DNA of 16,450 nt from a virus (Duplodnaviria; Heunggongvirae; Uroviricota; Caudoviricetes). Positions 9,373 through 9,683 of the stretch are shown here, piece after piece. A program made the translations under genes and the position numbers. The notes under the pieces are model-generated. The model was not told the origin of the DNA. It saw only the letters and a list, made by a program, of their open reading frames with translations, and made no database searches. Numbering within the stretch: the stretch's first letter is position 1; each line of letters begins with the position of its first letter. Where the stretch lies: IMG/VR virus record IMGVR_UViG_2537561618_000007; one strand, 5' to 3'.

Positions 9373-9449
9373 GGCCCTTTAGCTCAGTTGGTCAGAGCGA
9401 GCGACTCATAATCGCCAGGTCGCTGGTTCAAGTCCAGCAAGGGCCACCA
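9373..9449 (+). tRNA. tRNA with CAT anticodon, ileX-like (tRNA-Ile2; Met not excluded)
   Basis: Acceptor stem GGCCCTT/AAGGGCC, anticodon loop CTCATAA, T-loop GGTTCAAGTCC, 3' CCA. Resembles recalled E. coli ileX. Confidence 0.75.
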
Positions 9450-9450
9450 A

Positions 9451-9527
9451 CCACCACTAGCTCATCCGGATAGAGCATCAACCTTCTAAGTTGACGGTGC
9501 GAGGTTCGAGTCCTCGGTGGTGGGCCA
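9451..9527 (+). tRNA. tRNA-Arg (anticodon TCT, reads AGA)
   Basis: Acceptor CCACCAC/GTGGTGG, D-arm GCTCATCCGGATAGAGC, anticodon loop CTTCTAA, T-arm CGAGGTTCGAGTCCTCG, 3' GCCA. Confidence 0.75.
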
Positions 9528-9529
9528 GC

Positions 9530-9605
9530 GCCGACTTAGCTCAGCAGGCAGAGCAACTGACTTGTAATCAGTAGGTCACCAGTTCGATTCCGGTAGTCGG
9601 CACCA
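9530..9605 (+). tRNA. tRNA-Thr (anticodon TGT)
   Basis: Sequence GCCGACTTAGCTCAGCAGGCAGAGCAACTGACTTGTAATCAGTAGGTCACCAGTTCGATTCCGGTAGTCGGCACCA is near-identical to recalled thrU. Confidence 0.85.
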
Positions 9606-9608
9606 TAT

Positions 9609-9683
9609 GCGGGCATCGTATAATGGCTATTACCTCAGCCTTCCAAGCTGATGATGCGGGTTCGATTCCCGCTGCCCGCTCCA
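9609..9683 (+). tRNA. tRNA-Gly (anticodon TCC)
   Basis: Sequence GCGGGCATCGTATAATGGCTATTACCTCAGCCTTCCAAGCTGATGATGCGGGTTCGATTCCCGCTGCCCGCTCCA matches recalled glyT. Confidence 0.85.

Follow-up and report, generated by a model that had tools for sequence, protein, structure and literature searches.

Why would a lambdoid phage carry a run of tRNA genes between its late antiterminator gene and its lysis genes, and which codons would these tRNAs serve? We addressed this for the cassette at positions 9373-9683 of a 16,450-nt stretch of viral DNA (IMG/VR record IMGVR_UViG_2537561618_000007; the whole stretch is referred to here as the window). In the window ARAGORN called four tRNA genes and no others, each on the plus strand, and the Rfam model RF00005 (gathering score 29 bits) recovered the same four intervals with E values of 6e-14 to 4.5e-10, scores that are far above chance. 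The predicted cloverleaves have 7-bp acceptor stems and 7-nt anticodon loops, all four genes encode the 3' CCA, and the spacers between them are 1, 2 and 3 nt long. An initial annotation, made from the sequence, had described four closely packed genes here, and ARAGORN, Rfam and alignments to Escherichia coli K-12 show that its coordinates, anticodons (cat, tct, tgt and tcc, reproduced by gene prediction), spacing and host similarity were all correct. The genes are:

9373-9449, plus strand: tRNA1, tRNA-Ile2 type, anticodon CAU (ARAGORN; RF00005, 70.5 bits), homologue of ileX/ileZ
9451-9527, plus strand: tRNA2, tRNA-Arg, anticodon UCU, reads AGA/AGG (RF00005, 56.4 bits), argN-type phage scaffold
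9530-9605, plus strand: tRNA3, tRNA-Thr, anticodon UGU, reads ACA (RF00005, 69.8 bits), near copy of host thrU
9609-9683, plus strand: tRNA4, tRNA-Gly, anticodon UCC, reads GGA/GGG (RF00005, 64.9 bits), exact copy of glyT

The first gene had been described as Ile2-like, with a CAT anticodon, and comparison with host genes bears this out. tRNA1 matches ileX at 69 of 77 positions (90%), compared with 54 of 78 (69%) for metT/metU and 48 of 78 (62%) for the initiator metZ; it differs from ileZ of the Shiga toxin 2 (Stx2) phage F349 at 3 positions. The acceptor stem (GGCCCTT/AAGGGCC) retains C4-G69 and C5-G68, where metT has U4-A69 and A5-U68. In work by Ikeuchi and colleagues from 2005, TilS is said to discriminate tRNA-Ile2 from tRNA-Met by C4-G69 and C5-G68. 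The 27:43 pair is A.C in tRNA1 and G.U in ileX. The Prokaryotic Genome Annotation Pipeline (PGAP) labels an identical cassette sequence Ile, Arg, Thr and Gly, the equivalent of tRNA1 being the tRNA-Ile. From its sequence, tRNA1 is an ileX/ileZ-type tRNA-Ile2, in which lysidine at C34 and reading of AUA are expected.

tRNA2 is built on the argN scaffold of Stx phages, with the unusual C1-G72 acceptor stem CCNCCAC. Its D-loop, ATCCGGATA, aligns with AGTTGGATA of argU and includes GGATA with A20 (compared with argN and argO of F349 and with K-12 argU). The anticodon is UCU (C35, U36), the discriminator is G73 as in argU and argO, and U33 is normal. The identity set of the E. coli arginyl-tRNA synthetase comprises A20, C35, U36 or G36, and a purine at position 73. 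By sequence, tRNA2 is a well-formed tRNA-Arg(UCU) with the complete arginine identity set. Its Rfam score exceeds that of argN (43.0 bits) and those of relatives with Lys and Thr anticodons (44.4 and 43.7 bits).

The remaining two genes are close to those of the host. tRNA3 is identical to K-12 thrU at 74 of 76 positions, with both differences in the D-loop; the anticodon arm (ACTGA-CTTGTAA-TCAGT) is unchanged and retains CUG at 28-30 and CAG at 40-42. tRNA4 is identical to K-12 glyT over 75 of 75 positions. The junction between them (CCA-TAT-GCGGG) equals the host sequence from thrU to glyT minus 206 nt that include tyrU, which indicates that the pair was probably captured from the host thrU-tyrU-glyT operon and then trimmed, with loss of tyrU and the spacers. 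The cassette appears to be a mosaic, a phage ileZ/argN pair fused to this captured host pair, and the window displays how such an array may be assembled. The Thr-Gly pair occurs alone, ahead of the same holin gene, in phage phi467 and in Citrobacter braakii; in phi467 it lies between stxAB and that holin gene.

To relate the anticodons to codon usage we used an apparently intact prophage in E. coli CFSAN029787, which carries a cassette with 100% identity to that of the window. The host reference comprised 14,748 codons of K-12 core genes, and the 59 degenerate codons were ranked by the ratio of their within-family fractions. A 50-kb K-12 sample agrees with the initial annotation that AUA, AGA, ACA and GGA are rare: each ranks last or second to last in frequency within its codon family. 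Per 1000 codons, these four occur at 2.0-4.3 times the host frequency in late genes of the prophage and at 3.2-7.9 times in its early genes. AGG, AGA, AUA, GGA and ACA take enrichment ranks 1 to 5 of 59 in early genes, and ranks 1, 3, 4, 5 and 7 in late genes (Fisher p for the cognate codons from 0.006 to 1e-18). GGG and ACG also rank high in late genes; by standard wobble rules the Gly tRNA can read GGG and the Thr tRNA can read ACG. Low GC content does not explain the bias, because the late genes (54.3% GC) exceed the host sample (52.8%). The phage open reading frames (ORFs) of the window itself have the same codon pattern.

We consider it likely, with a probability of about 0.72, that the cassette serves codon supply, i.e., that it provides tRNAs for codons that the phage overuses and the host uses least. 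The four tRNAs, Ile2(CAU, reading AUA after lysidine modification), Arg(UCU), Thr(UGU) and Gly(UCC), would serve AUA, AGA/AGG, ACA and GGA, and these extra tRNAs would spare phage proteins from limitation by scarce host tRNAs. The polymerase modified by Q would transcribe the cassette late in infection, and a conserved sigma-70-type promoter might allow earlier or lysogenic expression. Given the spacers of 1-3 nt and the encoded CCA, cuts by RNase P and trimming by a 3' exonuclease would suffice for maturation. The gene calls, homologies, synteny and codon statistics are observed here, and from these we infer transcription, processing, modification, charging and benefit of the cassette tRNAs. 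That lambdoid and Stx phages carry tRNA genes after Q has been known since the 1990s; codon supply is the standard explanation, and the cassette is an ordinary member of this class. The window is a clean example, in that its anticodon set matches the most overused codons of the phage almost one for one. We found no description of the composition Ile2-Arg(UCU)-Thr-Gly in the literature searched, although public genomes do carry it in their PGAP annotation.

Several observations weigh against codon supply as a full account. Early genes are more strongly biased towards the cognate codons (3.3-5.7x enrichment) than late genes (1.8-4x), a poor fit to a cassette that is purely Q-dependent. Enrichment of rare A-ending codons is common to horizontally acquired DNA, and so the match is evidence of compatibility and not proof of selection. 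In most related cassettes the second slot holds a Lys(UUU) gene, and AAA is neither rare nor enriched in the CFSAN029787 comparison; codon supply therefore cannot explain every member of the cassette family. The prophage in the window is defective, so any benefit to the phage here is historical. The boost to late-gene translation that had been proposed initially holds in so far as the cognate codons are enriched in late genes, but the stronger bias of early genes makes that proposal too narrow. Codon supply is well supported without late-gene specificity.

The expression of the cassette depends on the elements on either side of it, which are, from Q to the holin gene:

8757-9173, plus strand: late antiterminator Q of the Q21/Q82/H-19B type (Pfam PF06530, Phage_antitermQ, E 5.8e-54)
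9202-9229, plus strand: candidate pR' late promoter, TTTACG-16-TATTCT, proposed from position and H-19B conservation only
9260-9286, plus strand: intrinsic terminator, the tR' equivalent, with a 9-bp stem (AAACCCGCC/GGCGGGTTT), loop TCCG and T-run
9335-9363, plus strand: candidate cassette promoter, sigma-70-like, with TTGCAG (9335-9340), a 17-nt spacer and TATTAT (9358-9363)
9684-9975, plus strand: structured 292-nt trailer from tRNA-Gly to the holin gene, with two long hairpins (~9686-9735 and ~9743-9815)

PGAP names the identical Q gene "antiterminator Q family protein", with a start equivalent to 8793, and the protein matches the solved Q21 structures 6p18/6jnx (E 3.8e-08). Q and ~110 nt downstream of it have 76.8% nucleotide identity to phage H-19B. 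This homology stops at ~9284, at the end of the terminator, and so the Q/pR'/tR' module ends there and the tRNA module starts after it. The order is Q (end 9173), terminator, tRNA genes, and holin gene (start 9976). A simple promoter and terminator scan gave no more hits than in shuffled sequences and missed the terminator at 9260-9286, and we used folding and conservation across lineages in its place. The terminator region folds with -24.8 kcal/mol (z -3.0). The candidate pR' scores 8/12 to consensus and was not called by the scan.

The candidate cassette promoter ends 9 nt before tRNA1. The scan reported the same site as TTTGCA-18-TATTAT, a call that is not significant from the single sequence alone. 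The TTGCAG/TATTAT pair is present in all 6 cassette contexts examined, including that of Stx2 phage F349, and across ten leader lineages (42% mean identity) it ranks first in conservation among 47 possible placements. Conservation in the ten leaders is 1.80 bits per position in the -10 element, 1.19 in the -35 element, 0.81 in the spacer and 0.32 further upstream. Because a sigma-70-like promoter is conserved in ten diverged leaders so close to tRNA1, expression of the cassette is probably not solely Q-dependent. The cassette may form its own transcription unit that is also read through by Q-modified polymerase. The initial annotation had assigned the genes to the Q-dependent late transcript; their location after Q, the pR' candidate and a strong terminator fit Q read-through, but the conserved promoter and the stronger early-gene codon bias argue against exclusive dependence. 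If the promoter is real, strict dependence on Q would not hold for the tRNAs, nor possibly for the toxin genes that follow them in Stx phages. The equivalent promoter in Stx phages would also point towards the toxin genes.

A real promoter would also mean that something must halt cassette transcripts ahead of the holin gene. The obvious candidate is the trailer, which we propose may insulate the lysis genes from cassette transcription. The fold of 9684-9830 has -48.2 kcal/mol (z -4.6), and none of 200 shuffles was as stable. Relatives differ in the length of a T-run at ~9757-9763. This type of trailer is at least 97% identical wherever it is present, and other cassettes carry unrelated trailers. 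A search of 9150-10000 against Rfam at a permissive threshold identified no family for the leader or the trailer. Antisense "Plastid-ycf2" matches in Rfam were rejected as shadows of the tRNAs, below threshold.

Among related cassettes the anticodons vary on shared scaffolds. We surveyed 120 IMG/VR contigs that share the slot-2 scaffold, with these arrays:

72 of 120 contigs: Ile2-Lys(UUU)-Thr-Gly
21 of 120 contigs: Ile2-Arg(UCU)-Thr-Gly, the type of the window
7 of 120 contigs: Ile2-Lys-Arg
5 of 120 contigs: Ile2-Lys-Lys-Gly, with UUU on the thrU scaffold
1 of 120 contigs: Ile2-Arg-Lys-Gly
14 of 120 contigs: shorter or partial arrays (e.g., Ile2-Arg, Ile2-Lys-Thr), together with one contig without a call

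The argN scaffold (e.g., at L003:3095-3171, L004:3095-3171 and L129:2595-2670) carries UCG (argN of Stx2 phages), UCU (the window), UUU (the commonest) or UGU (one E. coli genome), the thrU scaffold carries UGU or UUU (UUU in 6 of 106 thrU-type slot-3 genes from IMG/VR), and the glyT scaffold UCC or UAC. The Lys-type slot 2 always has C33 in place of the near-universal U33 (89 of 120 contigs) and mostly has U73; all UUU and UGU forms of this scaffold have C33, and most have U73. The Lys(UUU)-C33 gene may be decaying, as its lower Rfam scores and the D-stem deletions in some copies suggest, or it may be selected for another reason. Further changes occur in RMDEC332. Its thrU-type gene (L002:3230-3305) has TCATC in place of TCAGT in the 3' strand of the anticodon stem, with loss of the CNG motif and two pairs, and its glyT-type gene (L002:3309-3380) has the anticodon UAC ("Val"), a 1-nt acceptor deletion and a damaged scaffold.

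This variation allows a broader, speculative reading, to which we give a low probability: the cassette would be a self-promoted, portable tRNA array on conserved scaffolds, in which point mutations of the anticodon loop change what each slot decodes. As AAA is not rare, the common Lys(UUU)-C33 form would then point away from codon supply and to an arms race with tRNA-cleaving defence nucleases of P2/P4-type elements, with OLD cutting ThrU and PARIS or PrrC cutting Lys(UUU). The Arg/Thr/Gly version in the window would then be one state of an evolving system. The Lys(UUU)-C33 relatives are the one non-routine part of these findings, and they lie outside the window. Anticodon switching on fixed scaffolds provides natural test cases for change of tRNA identity and also for the recent idea that tRNAs of temperate phages counter nucleases of the OLD and PARIS types.

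For the window itself, the corresponding alternative is that the cassette replaces host tRNAs cut by defence nucleases (P2 OLD, PARIS AriB, PrrC or colicin D) rather than supplementing rare codons. Of these, P2 OLD cuts tRNA-ThrU(UGU) first, but also Lys, Arg and other tRNAs, AriB and PrrC cut tRNA-Lys(UUU), and colicin D cuts tRNA-Arg. There is precedent for such a role. To restrict lambda, P2-OLD cleaves the host's tRNA-Thr(UGU) at paired CNG motifs within the anticodon stem, and the tRNA-Thr(UGU) of phage 21 rescues from this restriction (PMC12445682). PARIS cuts tRNA-Lys(UUU), and a phage tRNA-Lys with changes in the anticodon stem-loop escapes (PMC11464382). The frequency of Lys(UUU) with C33 among relatives, where AAA is not rare, and the RMDEC332 Thr copy that lacks the 3' CNG motif and two anticodon-stem pairs would also fit. 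However, over-expression of the host tRNA-ThrU protects little or not at all (PMC12445682), and the tRNA-Thr of the window has the exact thrU anticodon arm with both CNG motifs. It shares the UGU anticodon of the OLD-resistant tRNA-Thr6 type, but has neither the altered CNG motif nor the shortened anticodon stem of that type, and the protective tRNA-Thr of phage 21 and SfI is a different, diverged scaffold. With an unchanged thrU anticodon arm, tRNA3 is predicted to be OLD-sensitive, which makes counter-defence weak for the window, and we reject an anti-P2-OLD role for this copy of tRNA-Thr. The tRNA-Gly does not differ from glyT, and the Arg(UCU) gene in slot 2 looks normal and has U33. In addition, the anticodon set fits the codon bias of the phage almost perfectly, a match that counter-defence does not predict. 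We consider counter-defence improbable as the function of this cassette.

No more probable is a cassette without current benefit to a phage, i.e., one domesticated by the host, where it would aid translation of AT-rich acquired genes in Shigella or enteroinvasive E. coli (EIEC), or a neutral hitch-hiking remnant. The state of the window favours such a reading: it is full of IS3-family elements and its late structural genes are gone after Rz. The best genome match covers 49% of it, while the cassette is identical in E. coli ECMA0423 and near-identical in Shigella flexneri SFBU1023, both of which have three cassettes in different prophage remnants, and the conserved promoter would permit expression without induction. 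On the other side, an apparently intact prophage carries the same cassette with 100% identity. The intactness of the cassette in the window may simply reflect recent decay and is no evidence of selection in the host.

The distribution of the cassette bears on this point and on recombination. Nine complete E. coli genomes contain the 461-bp cassette region with 100% identity, and matches covering at least 80% of it occur in 493 of 5,426, whereas the whole window is contiguous in none of these genomes (best coverage as given above). Among species representatives, the Thr-TAT-Gly junction is present in E. coli ECMA0423, S. flexneri SFBU1023 and C. braakii. ECMA0423 is 100% identical to the window over 5965-10257, and the cassette region of SFBU1023 is near-identical; the host of the window is probably a genome of the Shigella/EIEC type. 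In SFBU1023 and ECMA0423 (4.4-4.5 Mb), two of the three cassettes are of the Arg type and one is of the Lys type, and together they add three extra ileX-like, thrU and glyT genes to each genome.

It had also been suggested that the near-identity to thrU and glyT may allow recombination with the host, here at the thrU-tyrU-glyT-thrT-tufB locus. The longest exact host matches are 77 bp (glyT plus 2 nt) and 57 bp (the 3' part of thrU plus 1 nt), which exceed the minimum of ~25-30 bp for RecA-dependent exchange in E. coli, although these homologous segments are very short. Recombination with the host is nonetheless highly unlikely, as a chimera of host upstream sequence, glyT and phage downstream sequence reached at least 80% coverage in 0 of 5,426 complete E. 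coli genomes, even though the 493 genomes with a cassette of this type gave the opportunity; the host similarity reads better as past capture. The reciprocal chimera never went beyond 85% coverage, which the native host locus alone gives, and is only partly informative. A further candidate, tRNA-dependent lysogeny, in which a phage tRNA replaces a host tRNA gene destroyed by integration and which was reportedly described in mBio in 2024, was rejected: the intact relative in CFSAN029787 integrates beside mlrA and not in a tRNA gene.

The closest known arrangement is that of the Stx2 phages. In 933W, Sp5 and F349, ileZ-argN-argO occupies the same slot downstream of Q and before stx2AB, and the order of Q module, tRNAs and late genes is seen in F349, PPompW, SfI and phi467. 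The tRNA1-tRNA2 part of the window has 88.4% nucleotide identity to many Stx2 phages over query positions 57-228. Shared with ileZ-argN are the argN scaffold, the CCNCCAC stem, the same T arm, the 1-nt spacer after tRNA1 and the TTGCA-17-TATTAT leader. However, argN has UCG and U73 whereas slot 2 of the window has UCU and G73, and the window has no argO. In the window, the third and fourth slots hold Thr and Gly genes of host origin, and the lysis cassette follows directly, with no toxin genes.

tRNAs for Asn (GUU) and/or Thr (UGU) have been described after Q in other lambdoid phages, both in SfI and one or both in P21, Sf6, ST64T and PS3, together with a phage bias towards ACA relative to the Shigella host (PMC3636060). 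The window shares with phage 21, SfI, Sf6, ST64T and PS3 the position between Q and holin and the UGU anticodon. In P21 and SfI the tRNA-Thr belongs to the OLD-resistant type: its scaffold is diverged and unrelated, and its anticodon stem is altered. That of the window is thrU with two D-loop changes. The host thrU-tyrU-glyT-thrT-tufB operon has thrU and glyT in the same order and orientation as tRNA3 and tRNA4; unlike the operon, the window lacks tyrU (206 nt in total), thrT and tufB, and is flanked by phage DNA. Clusters of the T4 and T5 type are likewise head-to-tail, with spacers of a few nt, and are co-transcribed, and codon matching or escape from tRNA nucleases has been proposed for them (see also PMC10264068). 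Those are clusters of virulent phages with many phage-specific tRNAs, whereas here a temperate phage has four tRNAs, two of which are essentially host genes.

Downstream of the trailer we identified a lysis cassette, supported by Pfam (PF04971, PF00959, PF03245) and by PGAP annotation of a near-identical region:

9976-11887, plus strand: lysis cassette as a whole
9976-10191, plus strand: P21-type holin
10195-10824, plus strand: ORF of 209 aa between holin and lysozyme, kept as "hypothetical protein" in related prophages
10890-11423, plus strand: lysozyme
11405-11887, plus strand: Rz-type lysis protein

The 209-aa ORF has no match in Pfam or NCBIfam. Upstream of the cassette the gene order is NinB, isrK/C4 before a Rha-type gene, DnaC-like, DnaB-like, NinH and Q; on the 3' side the P21-type holin, the 209-aa ORF, lysozyme and Rz are followed by nested IS3-family elements. 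The window has three IS3-family insertions and no structural genes, the late structural genes being missing after Rz. It is a decayed lambdoid prophage remnant, related to H-19B and Stx phages and riddled with insertion sequences (IS).

Three other features of the window were identified. The Hfq-binding RNA isrK (4043-4119, plus strand, 58 bits) adjoins a C4 antisense RNA (4144-4231, plus strand, 75 bits). The pair lies upstream of a Rha-family gene (4415-4849) and inside a mechanically called ORF (3509-4339) with an Ash-family match, and the arrangement resembles an antisense-controlled antirepressor or anti-Q locus of the P1/P7 or Gifsy type. In place of the late genes after Rz stands a nested or inverted IS structure (12269-15691), with a perfect inverted repeat of 1,056 nt (12269-13324 and 14636-15691), each arm of which encodes an identical 263-aa IS3-family transposase. 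The 1,311-nt segment between the arms (13325-14635) contains another IS3-family element, with an ALIL pseudoknot at its frameshift site (14183-14298, 111 bits). Near the start of the window, ORF 691-1299 joins ~39 residues of the start of a DUF1133 domain to an IS3-family helix-turn-helix transposase domain, and an IS3-family integrase-core ORF comes after it. The region 691-2165 looks like an IS inserted in the DUF1133 gene of a second prophage fragment; in RMDEC332, a gene of the DUF1133 family lies immediately upstream of the tRNA cassette.

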